Below, piece after piece: positions 41,282-47,280 of a stretch of 64,000 nt of DNA; positions within the stretch are counted from its first letter, which is position 1; the number at the start of each line of letters is the position of its first letter. Made by a program: the position numbers and the translations under genes. Below the pieces are notes generated by a model. The model saw only the letters and a program-made list of their open reading frames with translations, was not told the DNA's origin and did not search any database. Origin of the DNA: an uncultured Verrucomicrobiales bacterium (GTDB lineage: Bacteria > Verrucomicrobiota > Verrucomicrobiia > Limisphaerales > JAYPXF01); assembly GCA_937893495.1 (NCBI GenBank), contig CALBIE010000391.1:1363-65362 (forward strand), in the 5' to 3' direction.

Positions 41282-44029
41282 TCACTTTTCCAATAACCGA
41301 CGTAGTTCCGCAAGCCTAGTGCCGTTGGCATGAAGGTAATCCTGCTGGGCGCGATAGGCGGCGGCGCGTTCGTTCTGTAGTTTTTTGTATGCCGGATTGT
41401 CGCGCAGTTTCTGGTTCTCGGCTTTCCGCGACTGGTTGATGTCCTCGTCGCTTACGAACGCCTGCGGGTAGGCTGATTCGAGCTTCCTTTGGGCGGCTTC
41501 GCTGGTCGCCACCAGCTTCTGGTAGCCGGCAGAATCCCGATGCTTCCGCCGAAGTCGCTCCAATTCCGCCTTGCGCTGGCTGTCCGGGAGGTCCGCGACC
41601 GCAGGATTCTGTTCGATGAGAAACTGGTCCAGTGCGCGATTGGCGCGATGCGTCGCGTGCAGGAGTTCTTTGTATGCCGGGTTTTCCTGGTTGAGTTTCT
41701 TGCGCAGTTCCAAGGCCGCTTTCTTGAGCTCCTTGTGCGAACTGAAGGCGGCGGGGAAGCGTTGCTTCTTCAGTTCGTCGAGGTCATCGGCCTTCTTGAT
41801 AAGGGCGCGGTATTCCGGATGGCGTTGATAGAGCCACTCATGGGCGTTGACCTTCTGAATGCTGTACTCCTCCTCCAGCGACTTTTTGACCGGGTGTTTG
41901 CCCGCGACGGATTTGATGTGCTCCAGATTGGCGGACTGCCCGCGATGCTTGCGAACCGTGAAAATCTGGATGTTGTCAAAGGCGGCCGGTCGGTCATCCA
42001 CCTGAAACGCGAAGTAGGTCCGTTCCTTGTCGAGAATGGGATGGGTGGCGTAGGCCAGGTGTTCGTGGTCGAGGTGGGCGACCAGTTGGTTGCCGATGAA
42101 CTCGACGGTCATCGTGTACCAGCGATCGGGATCGAAATCGTAGGCGCATTCGCCATGCCGGTAAGAGAAGTAAGGCCCGCTCTCATCCTTGGCGGTCTGG
42201 ACATAAAAGTGATCCGGGCGGATGTGGATGACGGCGTTGTAGTGCCCGTGACTGCCGGTCACGAGCCGGATGTCCTTCGACTTCTGCAGTTGGAAGTCGA
42301 AGCGGATGAGCGCTTCGACGTACTCGGCATCACGGAGATGGATGCGGGTGTTTTCGGATCCGGTTGCAATCCGTTGCAGGTTTCCCTTCGCGGCCGACCA
42401 ATCACCGTTGTACCAAAAGCGCTCACTGGCTTTGCCGGAAAAATGTTCGGCGAAGTAGAGCTGGCGGGGTTCGGTCAAAAGTGGGGCTGATGGAGTTCGG
42501 GCGGAAACATTCCGCCTCCAACCCGCGAGCTTCGCCTTTAGCACACTGACTTTCGCGGGATTTTTGCCGGACAAATCCGATCGTTCGGACGGATCGTCGG
42601 CCAGATGGTAGAGTTCGGTTTTGCCGGTGTCGAATCGCTCGATCAACTTCCAGTCGTCTTTGAGAATGGCTCCACCACTAAAGCCGCCAAGGAAGTGTGG
42701 CGAATCCAAAGGATAGTGCCAATAGAGGGCGTCGCGCTTGATCACTTGAGTCGCTTGTTTCCAGTTTGCGAGCATAGACACACCGTCCACGGGTTGCTCG
42801 CCTGGATAGCCAGATGGAAAACTGGTAGCAGCGGACGTGAGTCCGCTCTGATCGTTCGGGGCCCCGTTGGAAGTTTGAGCCGACTCACGTCGGCTGCTAC
42901 TGGACTGGGTGTTCTGAGCCACTCCCGCCGCGTCAAGCAGTGTGGGGAAAAAATCTGTGTTCACCGTGGGTTCATCACTGACGCCACCAGCACGAATGGT
43001 CTGCGGCCACTGCACGATCAGGGGCACCCGAACGCCGCCCTCATACAGTTCGCTCTTGCCTCCCCGCAACGGGGCGTTGGAGGTCACATTGGTCTCGCCG
43101 CCGTTGTCGCTGGTGAAGATGAAGATCGTGTTCTCCAGCAGTTTCAGATCGGCGAGCTTCGCGCGGATCTTGCCAATGCCGTCGTCGATGCCTTCGAGCA
43201 TGGCCGCAAGATGCGGATTGTGATCGGCGGCCCAGTGATGGCCGGAATCGCCTTTGCCGAGTCCCGCGTCCTCGCAAAGGTAGCAATTCGCCCGACCCGA
43301 TGGTACGGGCGCATGTTTCTTCCGATACTTCGCCACGAGGTCCGGACGGCCGTTGAGAATGGTGTGCGGCGCGTAGTGGGCAAGGTAGAGGAAGAACGGT
43401 TTGTCCTTGTTCCGGTCGATAAACTCAACCGCCTCCAGATTCAGGCGATCAGTCAGGTTCTCGTCTGCGCCAAGCCGGTTGTTGGTGATGTCCAGCCACC
43501 GGATGGGTTGATCGCGAAAGACATACGGCCACGTGTTGGCGCCATTGCCGACGCCTTTCACCTCGCTGCCGAAGTTCCAGTCGAAGCCATGTTCCGTCGG
43601 ACGAGTTTCATCCTCGGCCCCCTGAAACCTGTATCCCGTCAGATGCCACTTGCCGATCATACCGGTGGCATAGCCGTTCTTCTTCAACACCTCTGGAAGC
43701 GTCACCAGATCGGTGGACAATCGATTCGCCGAATTTGGACGGAGATAATCGAGAATGCCCAGTCGCGCCGGATGTTGGCCGGTCAACAACGCCGCACGAT
43801 ACGGCGAGCAGACCGGGGCCGCAGCGTAGGCTTGGGTGAAGAGCGTGCCTTCCTTCGCCATCCGGTCGAGGTTGGGTGTTTCATTGAACCTGTTGCCGTA
43901 GCAACCCAGTTCGGCCCAGCCGAGATCATCGGCGAGGACAAAGACGATGTTGGGTTTTGCGGCCGAACTGGCGTTCAGAGCGAACAGCAGACAGCCGGAG
44001 AACAGTAGCGTTGTCAGATGGTTCGTCAT
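41282..44029 (-). CDS. sulfatase (canonical CSPYR FGly motif) with C-terminal LamG/DUF1080-like domain and helical-repeat tail
   Basis: 915-aa ORF. KPNIVFVLADDLGWAELGCYGN, AAAPVCSPYRAALLTGQ, GKWHL. After about residue 500 there is a jelly-roll-like segment (WYNGDWSAAKGNLQ...AFDNIQIF), then repeated NPAYKELL / PEYRALIKK / SAGYQKLV / NPAYKKLQ helical motifs. Confidence 0.9.
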   Translation of the reverse strand: MTNHLTTLLFSGCLLFALNASSAAKPNIVFVLADDLGWAELGCYGNRFNETPNLDRMAKEGTLFTQAYAAAPVCSPYRAALLTGQHPARLGILDYLRPNSANRLSTDLVTLPEVLKKNGYATGMIGKWHLTGYRFQGAEDETRPTEHGFDWNFGSEVKGVGNGANTWPYVFRDQPIRWLDITNNRLGADENLTDRLNLEAVEFIDRNKDKPFFLYLAHYAPHTILNGRPDLVAKYRKKHAPVPSGRANCYLCEDAGLGKGDSGHHWAADHNPHLAAMLEGIDDGIGKIRAKLADLKLLENTIFIFTSDNGGETNVTSNAPLRGGKSELYEGGVRVPLIVQWPQTIRAGGVSDEPTVNTDFFPTLLDAAGVAQNTQSSSSRRESAQTSNGAPNDQSGLTSAATSFPSGYPGEQPVDGVSMLANWKQATQVIKRDALYWHYPLDSPHFLGGFSGGAILKDDWKLIERFDTGKTELYHLADDPSERSDLSGKNPAKVSVLKAKLAGWRRNVSARTPSAPLLTEPRQLYFAEHFSGKASERFWYNGDWSAAKGNLQRIATGSENTRIHLRDAEYVEALIRFDFQLQKSKDIRLVTGSHGHYNAVIHIRPDHFYVQTAKDESGPYFSYRHGECAYDFDPDRWYTMTVEFIGNQLVAHLDHEHLAYATHPILDKERTYFAFQVDDRPAAFDNIQIFTVRKHRGQSANLEHIKSVAGKHPVKKSLEEEYSIQKVNAHEWLYQRHPEYRALIKKADDLDELKKQRFPAAFSSHKELKKAALELRKKLNQENPAYKELLHATHRANRALDQFLIEQNPAVADLPDSQRKAELERLRRKHRDSAGYQKLVATSEAAQRKLESAYPQAFVSDEDINQSRKAENQKLRDNPAYKKLQNERAAAYRAQQDYLHANGTRLAELRRLLEK

Positions 44030-44065
44030 GCGAAAATGCAGTGGAGGGATTGGGACATGGTTCGA

Positions 44066-44148
44066 GCGTCCCTTCAGGACGCCGTAGCTATTGAAATCCT
44101 TGCCCCGGACTGAAGTCCGGGGCTTTTACGGGTGATGCCTTCAGCATC
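44066..44148 (+). repeat. REP unit 1 (three hairpins, orientation A)
   Basis: GCGTCCcttcaGGACGC ... CCCCGGACtgaaGTCCGGGG ... GATGCcttcaGCATC. Confidence 0.85.
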
Positions 44149-44162
44149 CGATTTACGCGTAG

Positions 44163-44300
44163 AGGTATTGTTATCGCCGGGCAGTTCGGACCTGCCGAGA
44201 TCCTCGGTGAGGACAAAGACGATGTTGGGTTTGCGCTCAGACGTTGCGGTTAATGCGCAGACGATTACGACAACGAAAGCGGCAATGCTTCGTAAAGATG
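44163..44300 (-). pseudogene. 5' remnant of a sulfatase gene trapped between two inverted REP units
   Basis: The minus strand encodes SIAAFVVVIVCALTATSERKPNIVFVLTEDLGRSELPGDNN, then breaks off into REP sequence. A stretch of about 40 nt (ccgagatcctcggtgaggacaaagacgatgttgggtt) is nearly identical to the 5' end of the adjacent sulfatase (43918-43955). Confidence 0.6.
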
Positions 44301-44328
44301 GCCACGAACAACCGAAGCCGATGCTGAA

Positions 44329-44412
44329 AGCATCTCCGATAACAGCCCCGGACTTCAGTCCGGGGTCATCCGCGCCCAAATGAAACGCGTCCTGAAGGGA
44401 CGTCCGATCACG
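44329..44412 (-). repeat. REP unit 2 (orientation B)
   Basis: GATGCtgaaaGCATC ... CCCCGGACttcaGTCCGGGG ... GCGTCCtgaagGGACGt; inverse of units 1 and 3. Confidence 0.85.
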
Positions 44413-44416
44413 CCGT

Positions 44417-44878
44417 TCAATCCCAAACATATCGTTCATCATAATCAACCTGATAGGCTTTCAGAAACTTCCGGAATTCAACTTGAAATGAAACTTTCCG
44501 ATGATGTTCCTGCTGTTTCCGAATGTATTCAACGACCTGGTCCGTGTCTTTCGGGCTGATACTGAACCAACCATAACCGGCCTGCCAATTGAAATGGCCG
44601 TGGATCATATTGTTGTCGTTGATCCATTTGGATGATCCGCCCTTCAATTCCTTCATGAAGTCCACGTCCGTGGTGGTCTTGGAGGATTTGATCAAAAGGT
44701 GTACATGGTCAGGCATGCCGTTGATGGCGATTAACCCAGCGCCGCGTTCTCGCACCATGCCGGTCATGTAGGAATGAATCCGATCTGCGATGTCGGTCCC
44801 GATCATCGGTTTACGGTTCTTCGTGGAGAACACGATGTGGGCGAAATTACAGTGGAGAGATTGAGGCATCGGGGGCAA
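44417..44878 (-). CDS. REP-associated tyrosine transposase (RAYT; IS200/IS605 TnpA-like Y1 HUH transposase)
   Basis: 153-aa ORF. AHIVFSTKNRKP, HUH motif PDHVHLLI, C-terminal catalytic-Tyr region VVEYIRKQQEHH. Flanked by inverted REP units 2 and 3. Confidence 0.85.
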   Translation of the reverse strand: MPPMPQSLHCNFAHIVFSTKNRKPMIGTDIADRIHSYMTGMVRERGAGLIAINGMPDHVHLLIKSSKTTTDVDFMKELKGGSSKWINDNNMIHGHFNWQAGYGWFSISPKDTDQVVEYIRKQQEHHRKVSFQVEFRKFLKAYQVDYDERYVWD

Positions 44879-44882
44879 TCGG

Positions 44883-44965
44883 GCGTCCCTTCAGGACGCC
44901 ATTGTTATCGTTTTCCTTCCCCCAGACTGAAGTCCGGGGCTTTTAGGGATGATGCTTTCAGCATC
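44883..44965 (+). repeat. REP unit 3 (orientation A)
   Basis: GCGTCCcttcaGGACGC ... CCCCaGACtgaaGTCCGGGG ... GATGCtttcaGCATC. Confidence 0.85.
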
Positions 44966-45003
44966 GATTTCGTGCGTCTCTCAGTTGGGCTCAGTTTCGG
45001 ACA

Positions 45004-46743
45004 TCACTTGTCCGCCTTCGGAGCGTTCTTTTTCTTGACCGGTTTCTTGGACTTGGGGGCAACCACGTTTCCCTTTTTGTCGATCCCGAGTTCATCAACG
45101 ACTTCTTGCTTTGAACTTTCGCGCCAAGATGAATTCTTCATCTGACCTTTGCAGATGGCTGTCTTCGCGGTGTGCTCGCGTTTCGCCGCCTTCAAACCCG
45201 TTTCCAGCTTGGCACGCTGCTTCTCGATGTCCGGCGGATTCTTCGCCTTGAGAGCCTCAAGGTCGCGCTGGAATCGTTCCTCCTTTTTCGCTAATCCTTC
45301 GTCCAGCCACTCCAGGTATGCAGCATAGACTTCCGACACGGCACCACCGTCCACTTTGTTGACATACTGCTGCCGGAGATGGTCCATCTCGGAAATTCTT
45401 TCCGGCATCTCGGCAGCGAGGTCATGCTCTTCCTTGTAATCCTTCGCCACGTTGAACAGTTTCATTTCGCCGGAGTTCAAATGTCTCATCAGCTTGTAGT
45501 CCCCGATACGAATTACGCTGATCGGCGGGTGGTAGTGGCAGGGGTAATGAAAGATCAGCCCGGGTGCGCCACGCGCAACGGTGCCCCCGTTTCCCCGTTC
45601 AAACACATCGCGGAGACTCCCTCCGTCCACGCCCGTCGGCAGCGGAGCCCGGCTGCCGGACAGATCGTGCAGTGTTGGCAGCAGATCCCATTGCACGACG
45701 GGAACGTTACACTGCGATCCCGGTTTGATTCCCGGACCGTACACCACGAACGGAACACGAAGCCCGCCCTCGAACATCGAACGCTTGCCTTCCTGCAACG
45801 GGCCGTTGAATCGATTGCCAGTCTCGTCACGGCGGCCGCGACCGCCTCCGTTGTCGGATGTGAAGATGACGTAGGTGTTGTCGAGTTCCTTTGAGTCCTT
45901 GAGCGCGTCGAGGATGGCTCCAAGACTCGCGTCGGTTTCTTCGACCATCGCCGCATACTGCCATTCCGGGAAATGCTTTTTGTATTCCTTGTCCTTCGGG
46001 CCGAGATCCGGATTTCCCGCGGCGACCCAGCGACGTCGACAACGCTCGATCGCTTCCGGAGAGGCCTGATAGGGAATGTGCACGGCGTAATGCGAGACCA
46101 TTAGGTAGAACGGTTGCTTTCCGGCGTGCTTCTTCACGAATTCAACTGACCGCCGCGTCAGATCGACGATCCGCTTGGGATTGTCGTCCGGAATCGAAAC
46201 CTTTCCCTTCACGTCGATGTAAGAGCCATGACCATTCCCATTGGGACCCCTGTCAAATTCGTCCGTGTCGTCGTAGCCGGCGTGGTCCATCCGACGAACT
46301 CCCATCCCCTTGCCGAAATGAGCCGTCACGTAGTTTTTGTCGGCGGCTTTGAGCACGGCGGCCATCGAGACTTCGTCGTCCCAACCGTCCGGTCGCTGCT
46401 TCTTGGAGAGCACGTCGAAGACGTTGCGGTACTGCATCCGCGCCGACGTCTTTCCAAACTGAATGCTGATTCGTGAGCCGGTGCAGGTCGGGGTCGGCGC
46501 GTAGCCAGAGCTGAATCGCACACCCTGCTTCGACAGTCGCTCCAGCGCCGGCGTCTGATAGAAATCGCTCTTCGAAAACGGTTCGTCATCCAACATGCGA
46601 ACCGAACTGTCCGCCCAGCCAAGGTCGTCCACGTAGAAGATGACGAAATTGGGGGGCGAATCGGCGGCCTTGAGGCTTGGCGCGAGACACAAGCAGATCA
46701 GCACCTCAATCGCGGATTGAAGGTAACAACGTAATATGCTCAT
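45004..46743 (-). CDS. sulfatase-family enzyme with non-canonical CTGSR active-site motif and Lys-rich C-terminal tail
   Basis: 579-aa ORF. PPNFVIFYVDDLGWAD, PTPTCTGSRISIQFGK (Cys codon at 46483-46485), HFGKG, FTSDNGG. The tail is KKGNVVAPKSKKPVKKKNAPKADK. Confidence 0.85.
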   Translation of the reverse strand: MSILRCYLQSAIEVLICLCLAPSLKAADSPPNFVIFYVDDLGWADSSVRMLDDEPFSKSDFYQTPALERLSKQGVRFSSGYAPTPTCTGSRISIQFGKTSARMQYRNVFDVLSKKQRPDGWDDEVSMAAVLKAADKNYVTAHFGKGMGVRRMDHAGYDDTDEFDRGPNGNGHGSYIDVKGKVSIPDDNPKRIVDLTRRSVEFVKKHAGKQPFYLMVSHYAVHIPYQASPEAIERCRRRWVAAGNPDLGPKDKEYKKHFPEWQYAAMVEETDASLGAILDALKDSKELDNTYVIFTSDNGGGRGRRDETGNRFNGPLQEGKRSMFEGGLRVPFVVYGPGIKPGSQCNVPVVQWDLLPTLHDLSGSRAPLPTGVDGGSLRDVFERGNGGTVARGAPGLIFHYPCHYHPPISVIRIGDYKLMRHLNSGEMKLFNVAKDYKEEHDLAAEMPERISEMDHLRQQYVNKVDGGAVSEVYAAYLEWLDEGLAKKEERFQRDLEALKAKNPPDIEKQRAKLETGLKAAKREHTAKTAICKGQMKNSSWRESSKQEVVDELGIDKKGNVVAPKSKKPVKKKNAPKADK

Positions 46744-46750
46744 GAATCTG

Positions 46751-46830
46751 GTTTGATGGATTATTATAGTGTGTGACTGACGCCGAAGGAGTTTGATGGA
46801 TTATTATAGTGTGTGACTGACGCCGAAGGA
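46751..46830. repeat. perfect 2 x 40-bp tandem duplication directly upstream of the sulfatase start codon; each unit carries TATAAT on the gene strand
   Basis: gtttgatggattattatagtgtgtgactgacgccgaagga occurs at 46751-46790 and again at 46791-46830. The reverse complement contains cacTATAATaatcc. Confidence 0.9.
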
Positions 46831-47063
46831 TGATGAGCCCGGCAACCACGCTTTTGCAACGGTTCTGGAGGGCAGGAAAACTGGTCGATGAGTTCATGAA
46901 AGGCTAGGGCGATGGATGCAGGATGCTGCTCGGACGTGATGAGGACAAGCCGCATTCGAAGATCAGCCGTTCGATTTCTGGAGGAATTCGGTCAGGCCCA
47001 GGCTTCAACTCAGCCAATTCCGCGGTGTTTCAGTATCGGACAGCGCAATCGGCCACTTGCGAC

Positions 47064-47147
47064 GATGCTGAAAGCATCATCCGAAATAGCCCCGGACTTC
47101 AGTCCGGGGTCACCTGCGCCCGCAGGACACGCGTCCTGAAGGGACGC
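47064..47147 (-). repeat. REP unit 4 (orientation B)
   Basis: GATGCtgaaaGCATC ... CCCCGGACttcaGTCCGGGG ... GCGTCCtgaagGGACGC. Confidence 0.85.
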
Positions 47148-47171
47148 CCGAACACACCGCTCAGTCTCGAA

Positions 47172-47255
47172 ATTGTTGTCGTTAATCCATTTGGATGATT
47201 CGCTCTTCAATTCCTACATGAAGTCCAGGGCTGTTATCGGTGATGCTTTCAGCAT
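47172..47255 (-). pseudogene. 58-bp internal fragment of a second RAYT gene plus a lone REP hairpin (decayed REP/RAYT unit)
   Basis: 47172-47229 (attgttgtcgttaatccatttggatgattcgctcttcaattcctacatgaagtcca) is about 90% identical by eye to 44608-44665 inside the intact RAYT gene (region ...DFMKELKGGSSKWINDNN). GATGCtttcaGCATC lies at 47241-47255. Confidence 0.7.
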
Positions 47256-47280
47256 CCGTTTCATTCGTCCGCGAATCGGG

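Follow-up and report, generated by a model that had tools for sequence, protein, structure and literature searches.

The Y1/HUH enzymes TnpA of IS608 and ISDra2, like TnpA-REP of Escherichia coli, bind hairpins in single-stranded DNA (ssDNA) and cut at short sequences adjacent to them. In the E. coli arrangement, the REPtron, a gene of TnpAY1 class 2 (the class of the RAYTs, or REP-associated tyrosine transposases, REP denoting repetitive extragenic palindrome) lies between inverted hairpin repeats. TnpAY1 subclass 1.2 has been described as a low-copy sister of IS200 that is not an insertion sequence (IS), marked by the motifs DH[IV]H, WQ, and Y---Q--HH, a length of ∼148 aa, and a conserved C-terminal tail of ∼30 aa, and recorded as “REP: no” (Quentin, Siguier, Chandler, and Fichant, 2018, PMC6006769, Table 1). 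Here we describe a 64,000-nt stretch of contig CALBIE010000391.1 (the window; all window coordinates refer to the full stretch) from the metagenome-assembled genome (MAG) of an uncultured Verrucomicrobiales bacterium (GCA_937893495.1; 7.98 Mb, 900 contigs, 88% complete), in which a gene assigned by its sequence to subclass 1.2 is bracketed by inverted copies of a three-hairpin module. Positions 44313–44972 are best explained, with a probability of roughly 0.75, as an intact cassette belonging to a REP/RAYT-like system with origins in the IS200 branch of the Y1/HUH enzymes.

Two further descriptions in the literature come close to this locus. “IS200 Group 3” (Bertels, Gallie, and Rainey, 2017, PMC5581495) is likewise RAYT-like on the IS200 side of the family, without duplicates and not found on plasmids, and its flanking 16-mers are repeated about 21 times; unlike the present analysis, that paper gives no description of repeat structure. 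Compared by description only, Group 3 is probably the same as subclass 1.2. Acido-Lenti-1 (Rfam RF01687) was described, from covariation in Acidobacteria and Lentisphaerae, only as a probable small RNA (sRNA) (Weinberg et al., 2010, PMC2864571), and in two 2026 preprints it is still “of unknown function.” REPs as such are already documented in bacteria of the Planctomycetes–Verrucomicrobia–Chlamydiae (PVC) group, for example as the GTAG repeats of Opitutus terrae (PMC3733652), so that in this respect the interest that an earlier note on this DNA saw in a triple-hairpin REP of a PVC-type genome is not supported.

An intact transposase gene between inverted three-hairpin modules

The earlier note had placed an intact Y1/HUH gene between inverted units 2 and 3, with unit 1 forming a further inverted pair with unit 2, and this anatomy was borne out. 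Direct reading of the sequence gave three ∼85-nt units in the same positions (Table 1), each with three hairpins (H1, H2, and H3), which in unit 1 read GCGTCC-cttca-GGACGC, CCCCGGAC-tgaa-GTCCGGGG, and GATGC-cttca-GCATC, respectively; H2 of unit 3 has a single A/C mismatch. In the output of a repeat finder, units 1 and 3 form a direct repeat of 87 nt (85% identical), and unit 2 is inverted relative to both, with arms of 51–53 nt that are 85–86% complementary. Patterns written for the hairpins matched the window four to eight times each, vs. 0.01–0.29 matches expected from shuffles.

Units 2 and 3 thus flank the gene as inverted cognate modules, as in a REPtron: unit 2 lies directly downstream of the stop codon and unit 3 directly upstream of the start codon, each module standing 9–15 nt from its end of the open reading frame (ORF), with H1 facing the gene and H3 outermost. 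The longest ORF (44417..44878, minus strand) opens with a TTG at 44878, is intact, and contains MPDHVHLL and VVEYIRKQQEHH, which hold the DHVH and catalytic Tyr motifs; since the homologues are 150 aa long and begin with MPQSLH, translation probably starts at the ATG at 44869.

Assignment of the protein to TnpAY1 subclass 1.2

The protein scored 88.4 bits against Pfam Y1_Tnp (PF01797; gathering cut-off 23), and its HUH motif (DHVH) and the catalytic Tyr in EYIRKQQEHH were invariant in alignment A2. It passed the NCBIfam IS200 model (transpos_IS200) marginally, at 67.4 bits vs. a cut-off of 55, whereas the one true IS200 of the genome (contig C756) reached 142.6 bits, and it fell far short of REP_Tyr_transpos (NF047646), at 28.3 bits vs. 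80, whereas a class-2 gene of the same genome (C861) reached 96.5 bits. The class-2 motif Y---NP was not found in the 150-aa protein, which has Y---Q--HH instead; together with DHVH, the WQ of NWQAGYG, the Y---Q--HH of YIRKQQEHH, and the length, this completes the signature of subclass 1.2, and the conserved C-terminal tail is present as TFQDEFRKFL..YDERYVWD. In the PDB, the closest relatives were 2fyx, a transposase of Deinococcus radiodurans (E = 3e-10), and ISDra2 TnpA (E about 1e-9), and the search did not reach the E. coli TnpA-REP structure at E <= 1. On motifs and profile scores, the protein is a TnpAY1 of subclass 1.2 and not a class-2 RAYT.

By motif, the 25 Y1 genes of the genome, an unusually rich complement, comprise one true IS200, 11 of subclass 1.2, and 13 that are class-2 RAYT-like; two of the last were scanned with REP_Tyr_transpos, C861 scoring above the cut-off and C663 (71.5 bits) below it, and some class-2 genes (C349, C861, C103, and C660) are flanked by repeats with 15–58 copies. 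In a maximum-likelihood tree that took C861, as the genome’s own NF047646-positive gene, and the IS200 of C756 as references, class 1 and class 2 were set apart (Shimodaira–Hasegawa-like approximate likelihood ratio test, 97), with the query inside class 1 and the true IS200 apart from it on a long branch of its own. The query grouped with metagenomic orthologues and not with the other ten subclass-1.2 paralogues of its genome, which are 40–46% identical to it. The gene that the earlier note had taken for a RAYT therefore belongs to class 1, distant from the class-2 genes as well as from ordinary IS200. Of the REP/RAYT identity itself, the REPtron-like layout stands, whereas membership of class 2 does not, on account of the low NF047646 score, the missing Y---NP motif, and the missing GTAG tag.

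The locus agrees with published subclass 1.2 in its motifs, a length of ∼148–150 aa, the ∼30-aa tail, low copy number, divergent intragenomic paralogues, and the lack of IS200-type ends. It departs from the published account in that subclass 1.2 was reported as mostly cyanobacterial or from Bacteroidetes, with a mean of 1.7 paralogues per genome vs. 11 here, and without REPs (PMC6006769), whereas inverted three-hairpin modules tightly bracket the present gene as well as its relatives in PVC bacteria, Acidobacteriota, and Chloroflexota. The absence of REP- or IS-type secondary structure, a reported but non-defining property of the subclass, thus holds neither here nor in independent loci.

Conservation of the module next to the gene

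At the nine closest orthologous loci (50–73% protein identity), the module was present on both sides of the gene and inverted in all nine, and its fixed geometry holds for orthologues of 50–79% identity. Orthologue units are 84–89 nt long, with H1-to-H2 offsets of 37–42 nt and H2-to-H3 offsets of 27–31 nt (29 in 17 of 21 units). Their stems are exchanged in compensatory fashion, H1 between GCGTCC/GGACGC, GCGGCC/GGCCGC, and GCACCC/GGGTGC, H2 between CCCCGGAC, CCCAGGAT, CCCGGGCC, and CCTAGGGC, and H3 between GATGC, TGGGC, and GTCCC, around loops that remain constant across the query clade (YTTCA, TGAA, and YTTCA). Within this clade, in an alignment anchored by hand on the hairpins (A1), 94% of cells were paired and 11 of 19 pairs had changed on both sides, none on one side only; the covariation score was reached by none of 500 shuffles, and slid controls paired in 23–44% of cells. 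Because their stems covary in this way, the hairpins are judged real on comparative evidence.

The geometry (H1 at ∼+15, H2 at ∼+50, and H3 at ∼+81 from the stop codon) is retained in the ten paralogous cassettes of the host genome, each of which has its own stems and loops; in C678, all three loops carry GTT. Across the family, the loops are of TTC type in H1 and H3 and TGAN in H2. The CTTCAG core that the earlier note had seen in every hairpin is therefore a feature of the query clade and not of the family; as a putative recognition site it retains plausibility through the conservation of the loops. The 5′ tag before H2 is ACAG, AAAG, or AGAG in the query clade, in place of the canonical GT[AG]G tag of REPs, and GTAG or GTTAG in some Planctomycetota and Acidobacteriota relatives. 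Outside H3 there was a weak G-TTT tendency alone, and no target or cleavage motif is claimed.

More widely, inverted repeats between the flanks were significant in 35 of 71 homologous loci from many phyla vs. one of 57 displaced control flanks. A covariance model of the full three-hairpin unit (R1), with the query clade as its sole training set, detected 50 units in a search set of 93 other loci, from Phycisphaerae, Planctomycetales, and Pirellulales (Planctomycetota), Acidobacteriota, Chloroflexia (Chloroflexota), and other Verrucomicrobiota. Forty-two of these lay within 130 nt of a gene, 23 of them upstream, on the strand opposite the gene, and 15 downstream, on the gene’s own strand, with four exceptions; most of the 38 that follow this rule were 6–38 nt from the ORF, and H1 was almost always next to the gene. 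Bacteroidota relatives differ in having a single hairpin followed by ATATCGGTAG. A wider, model-fitted alignment of 55 units (the 50 found by R1 and the five of the window, which are training sequences) had 95.8% of cells paired, 273 double-change cells, and G-T wobbles in only ∼12 of 1,006 cells, a scarcity more in keeping with constraint acting on DNA, or on both strands, than on RNA.

In several genomes, most strong copies of the motif lie far from the gene or in tandem arrays with 149–153-bp periods, which is REP-like behavior; related modules number about 25 in Persicirhabdus and at least 8–11 in other genomes. At the Persicirhabdus sediminis locus (L021, NZ_JAENIM010000047.1; G041:C47:185797-188128), three units stand on one side and four, arrayed in tandem with a 149-bp period, on the other, and the related H2 hairpins of this isolate, about 25 genome-wide, include several in further clusters. 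Gene-less copies and arrays of this kind, known from some genomes, and a private repeat family for each paralogue are points in common with the REPtron, from which the present system differs in its class-1 protein, in a hairpin foot of ACAG or AAAG where the REP has GTAG, in the fixed composite of three hairpins, and in the small number of units in the host genome.

Copy number, decay, and the boundaries of the cassette

Exact and mismatch pattern counts and blastn-short found six units of the CTTCAG family in the assembly, five of them in the window; the sixth, on contig C620, stands beside a truncated N-terminal fragment of the gene (41 aa, 88% identical). Unit 1 is the sole unit without an adjoining gene or gene remnant. 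The earlier note had held that a lack of genome-wide enrichment would speak decisively against REP units, and six in 7.98 Mb is no enrichment; the CTTCAG units do not form a dispersed, high-copy REP population. No copy of the gene itself is more than 88% identical, and the remnants are at about 62–88%.

A second, decayed cassette (unit 4, a gene remnant, and partial unit 5) lies 2 kb from the intact one. What survives of its gene corresponds to residues 62–90 at 62% identity, and one of its deletion junctions falls on TGAAGTCC, an 8-mer common to the gene and H2, so that the pattern looks like microhomology-mediated decay. Model R1 gave 23.1 bits on 47182–47257 for partial unit 5 and 82.7 bits for unit 1, the latter being a member of its training set. 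The CTTCAG family in this genome is thus low-copy and turning over, with one intact cassette, two decayed ones (47056–47262 and C620), and a single additional unit enclosing the sulfatase stump.

The cassette behaves as a discrete unit. Over 44322–44972 it shares 74% nucleotide identity with a locus in another genus of the same family (L094:1023–1678 in genome G003), and the homology ends at the outer hairpins (44972 in unit 3), beyond which the flanks are unrelated and not syntenic. This closest same-family orthologue (G003:C105:1020-1672) is itself frameshifted, with both three-hairpin flanks intact (R1, 75 and 68 bits). Synteny was not found among the orthologues; one has a sulfatase next to it, but these genomes encode sulfatases in large numbers. 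The exact protein (P0003) recurs in metagenomes, where the longer contigs have one context and the short ones nothing different, which is uninformative on mobility. Among relatives the gene is patchy, occurring in 24 of 41 genomes.

Such boundaries, in a different genomic context, would also be produced by an ordinary IS200/IS605-type insertion sequence that has the flanking hairpins as left and right ends and moves as a unit in the manner of IS200 or IS608, and decayed and frameshifted copies, the position of all units but one beside a gene or remnant, the pass on the IS200 equivalog, and the top-ranking D. radiodurans structures point the same way. The locus and such elements share their closest solved structures and HMM (hidden Markov model) family, a minimal Y1 core, hairpin ends, and presumably ssDNA chemistry. 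This explanation is nonetheless unlikely. In IS200, IS608, and ISDra2 (subclass 1.1), the ends are two subterminal hairpins direct on one strand, whereas here they are inverted copies of one module. Near-identical copies are absent, even the closest paralogues and remnants being as divergent as given above; there is no tnpB gene, the neighbors being sulfatases; the genome’s true IS200, at 143 bits vs. 67, occupies a long branch of its own; other genomes have gene-less modules, dispersed or in arrays; and subclass 1.2 has been described as lacking IS properties (PMC6006769).

Table 1. Features of the cassette and its surroundings, in window coordinates.
Feature	Position	Strand	Details
Three-hairpin unit 1	44062..44155	+	H1 44066-44082, H2 44103-44122, H3 44134-44148
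Sulfatase 5′ stump (signal peptide + KPNIVFVLTEDLG)	44163..44310	-	Between units 1 and 2; ORF 44074..44448
Three-hairpin unit 2	44313..44408	-	H1 44387-44403, H2 44346-44365, H3 44320-44334
Y1/HUH transposase gene, intact, 150 aa	44417..44869	-	TnpAY1 subclass-1.2 type
Three-hairpin unit 3	44878..44972	+	H1 44883-44899, H2 44920-44939, H3 44951-44965
Three-hairpin unit 4	47056..47152	-	H3 47064-47078, H2 47090-47109, H1 47131-47147; downstream flank of decayed cassette
Remnant of second transposase gene copy	47153..47228	-	∼75 nt, two internal deletions; tblastn C391:48617-48534
Partial unit 5	47225..47262	+	H2 3′ half, linker, H3 47242-47256; upstream flank of decayed cassette

Relationship of the module to Acido-Lenti-1

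A permissive scan of the window with RF01687 (gathering score 37 bits) aligned the model to the H2-linker-H3 part of unit 2 (33.3 bits, 44320–44365), unit 4 (31.6), unit 1 (28.6, 44103–44148), and unit 3 (19.7), in each case ungapped over model positions 1–46. In both, a 4-nt TGAN loop caps a stem of 8 bp, the linker is 12 nt long and begins with CT, and a 3-nt TTC loop caps a stem of 5 bp; by this geometry and alignment, H2 and H3 of the module constitute a divergent version of the Acido-Lenti-1 motif. Parts of the seed alignment of Weinberg et al. likewise hold members with an upstream third hairpin and, in Lentisphaera, arrays, and no gene-context lines occur in parts 1 and 14 of its Stockholm file. 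Acido-Lenti-1 differs in being catalogued as an sRNA without a transposase link, and a literature search for such a link to a Y1 transposase found none.

Matches at or above the gathering score stand beside subclass-1.2 genes at loci L021, L024, and L088 and in the paralogous cassettes C604, C678, and C630; cassettes of the host genome reach 49.5, 47.5, 40.4, and 37.8 bits. The P. sediminis gene has three matches upstream (minus strand) and one downstream (plus strand), matches above the threshold also flank the gene in a Bryobacterales MAG, and in a Terriglobia MAG one lies about 500 nt downstream. An Rfam match to the nadA riboswitch (47 bits vs. a gathering score of 37.5; L088:978-1033), about 470 nt upstream of a gene of subclass 1.2 in a Terriglobia MAG, probably has no connection with the cassette.

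Within the host genome, no more than 422 nt separate 15 of 19 RF01687 matches (E <= 0.1) from a gene of subclass 1.2 or the remnant of one; most of the 15 lie 43–63 nt from the ORF, they include all four above the gathering score, and three of the four solitary matches are gene-less copies of the module of the C604 paralogue. Across 201 genomes sampled evenly from the phylum, 15 had motif and gene, two the motif only, nine the gene only, and 175 neither (odds ratio about 146, Fisher p about 1e-14, kinship ignored); of the two with the motif only, one retains a remnant of the gene.

These associations point to Acido-Lenti-1 as a DNA-level repeat cognate to subclass-1.2 genes. That the hairpins act as RNA, whether as the Acido-Lenti-1 sRNA or as stabilizers or terminators in a 3′ untranslated region (UTR), with a regulatory or incidental relation to the gene, is less probable still than an ordinary insertion sequence. 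It accords with the covariation-based Rfam and Weinberg et al. entry and with the position of the downstream module, which lies on the sense strand and would fall in the 3′ UTR. The upstream module, however, is antisense to the gene in 23 of 25 near upstream matches, so that one transcript cannot hold both flanks in motif orientation; changes in the stems are nearly all from one Watson-Crick pair to another, with G-U in about 1% of cells; inspection of the sequence gave no terminator-type T-runs after the hairpins; and the tandem arrays and the strong co-occurrence with the gene fit a repeat-and-enzyme system.

The fuller proposal, that Acido-Lenti-1 is an ssDNA hairpin module recognized by the TnpAY1 subclass-1.2 enzymes and not an RNA gene, the two together forming a second cross-phylum REP/RAYT-type system with an origin on the IS200 side, we favor by somewhat better than even odds. 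If Acido-Lenti-1 is such a DNA module, its substrate would be a fixed three-hairpin unit in which H1 and H3 carry the loop on one strand and H2 carries the same loop on the other, so that the two strands of the cassette would present equivalent sites.

Neighboring genes and other repeats

Within the stump between units 1 and 2, positions 44182–44232 are 92% identical over 51 nt to 43907–43957, at the start of the intact adjacent sulfatase (direct repeat D2), which, with its place between inverted units, suggests a rearrangement or truncation linked to the repeats. Farther along, a perfect tandem duplication of the 40-nt unit gatggattattatagtgtgtgactgacgccgaaggagttt (46751–46830) lies directly upstream of a sulfatase gene starting at 46743 (minus strand).

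The genome does contain abundant repeats, which belong to other families. The most abundant, present in about 117 copies, is a palindrome of ∼76 nt that bears a GTAG tag (GTAGCAGCCGACGTGAGGAGGCTC...GAGCCTCCTCACGTCGGCTGCTAC); it has an in-frame copy at 42825–42900 in the sulfatase ORF 41282..44029 (minus strand), where it encodes a stretch of ...GLTSAATS... and probably accounts for the “Ser/Gln-rich insertion” of the earlier note. A second family, a REPIN-like doublet of ∼170 bp with about 100 copies (for example G000 C23:27080, C37:2157, and C129:15178-15421), has hairpins in the frame GGAGCGCGG-NNNNNNNN-CCGCAGA with variable 8-nt centers (ACTTCAGT, AATTCATT, and CGTTTACG), and one variant has the 12-mer GGACTTCAGTCC in common with H2. 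Kinship between the module and this ∼100-copy GCGGACTTCAGTCCGC-hairpin repeat was considered because of the common 12 nt and rejected, as the repeat is a ∼170-bp doublet that does not flank subclass-1.2 genes; the shared core is unexplained or coincidental.

Interpretation and significance

What is directly established here is how the locus is built, that this anatomy is conserved, and that module and gene are associated; the three-hairpin module is probably the cognate DNA partner of the subclass-1.2 enzyme family. Several points weigh against this interpretation. The CTTCAG units are not dispersed in the genome and resemble the ends of a low-copy element rather than a REP population, with the proviso that some copies may be missing from so fragmented and incomplete an assembly. 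All window units score below the RF01687 gathering threshold, and the co-occurrence test carries no correction for phylogeny. Alignment A1 was anchored by hand on the hairpins and A4 was fitted to the model, so that both lean toward the structure. Binding, the cleavage site, and mobility of subclass-1.2 enzymes are all points that we infer by analogy, and neither an empty site nor an excision junction was observed. The locus most likely belongs, as a low-copy member in partial decay, to a REP/RAYT-like system of the IS200 branch. The remaining alternative, a domesticated and immobile gene whose hairpins are kept as cis-regulatory or structural DNA, such as sites for a nucleoid protein or gyrase, without transposition chemistry, would suit the single-copy state of every paralogue, the old lineages and chromosomal context of the gene, and the housekeeping-like “IS200 Group 3” (Bertels et al., 2017, PMC5581495), but is very improbable given catalytic HUH and Tyr motifs that are invariant across the family, orthologues in different genomic contexts, turnover evident in remnants and gene-less copies, and the patchy distribution of the gene.

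For a REP/RAYT-like system, a mechanism can be proposed by analogy with IS608 and ISDra2 TnpA and E. coli TnpA-REP. A dimeric enzyme would bind the hairpins in ssDNA, for example on the lagging-strand template, reading the conserved loops (YTTCA in H1 and H3, TGAA in H2) together with the conserved GGC-T just 3′ of H2, and would cut and rejoin nearby, thereby copying or moving single modules and occasionally the whole ∼650-bp cassette. Because the TGAA of H2 is the complement of the loop core of H1 and H3, each strand of a unit offers at least one TTCA-loop hairpin, and equivalent sites are therefore available on the same strand on both sides of the gene, which could permit processing of single modules or of the entire cassette.

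The added value of this locus by itself is modest, as a rather divergent, low-copy example from a genome that has 11 cassettes of this kind. Its wider interest is that it gives a partner DNA element to a Y1 subclass published as having none, and that it offers a concrete and testable function for an abundant orphan Rfam family now annotated as a small RNA, one that has been over-interpreted before now as a regulator. A stereotyped three-hairpin substrate would also be a tractable system for the way in which Y1 enzymes read structure in ssDNA. For the HUH/Y1 family as a whole, the finding suggests more than one origin of REP/RAYT-like domestication or of low-copy persistence.

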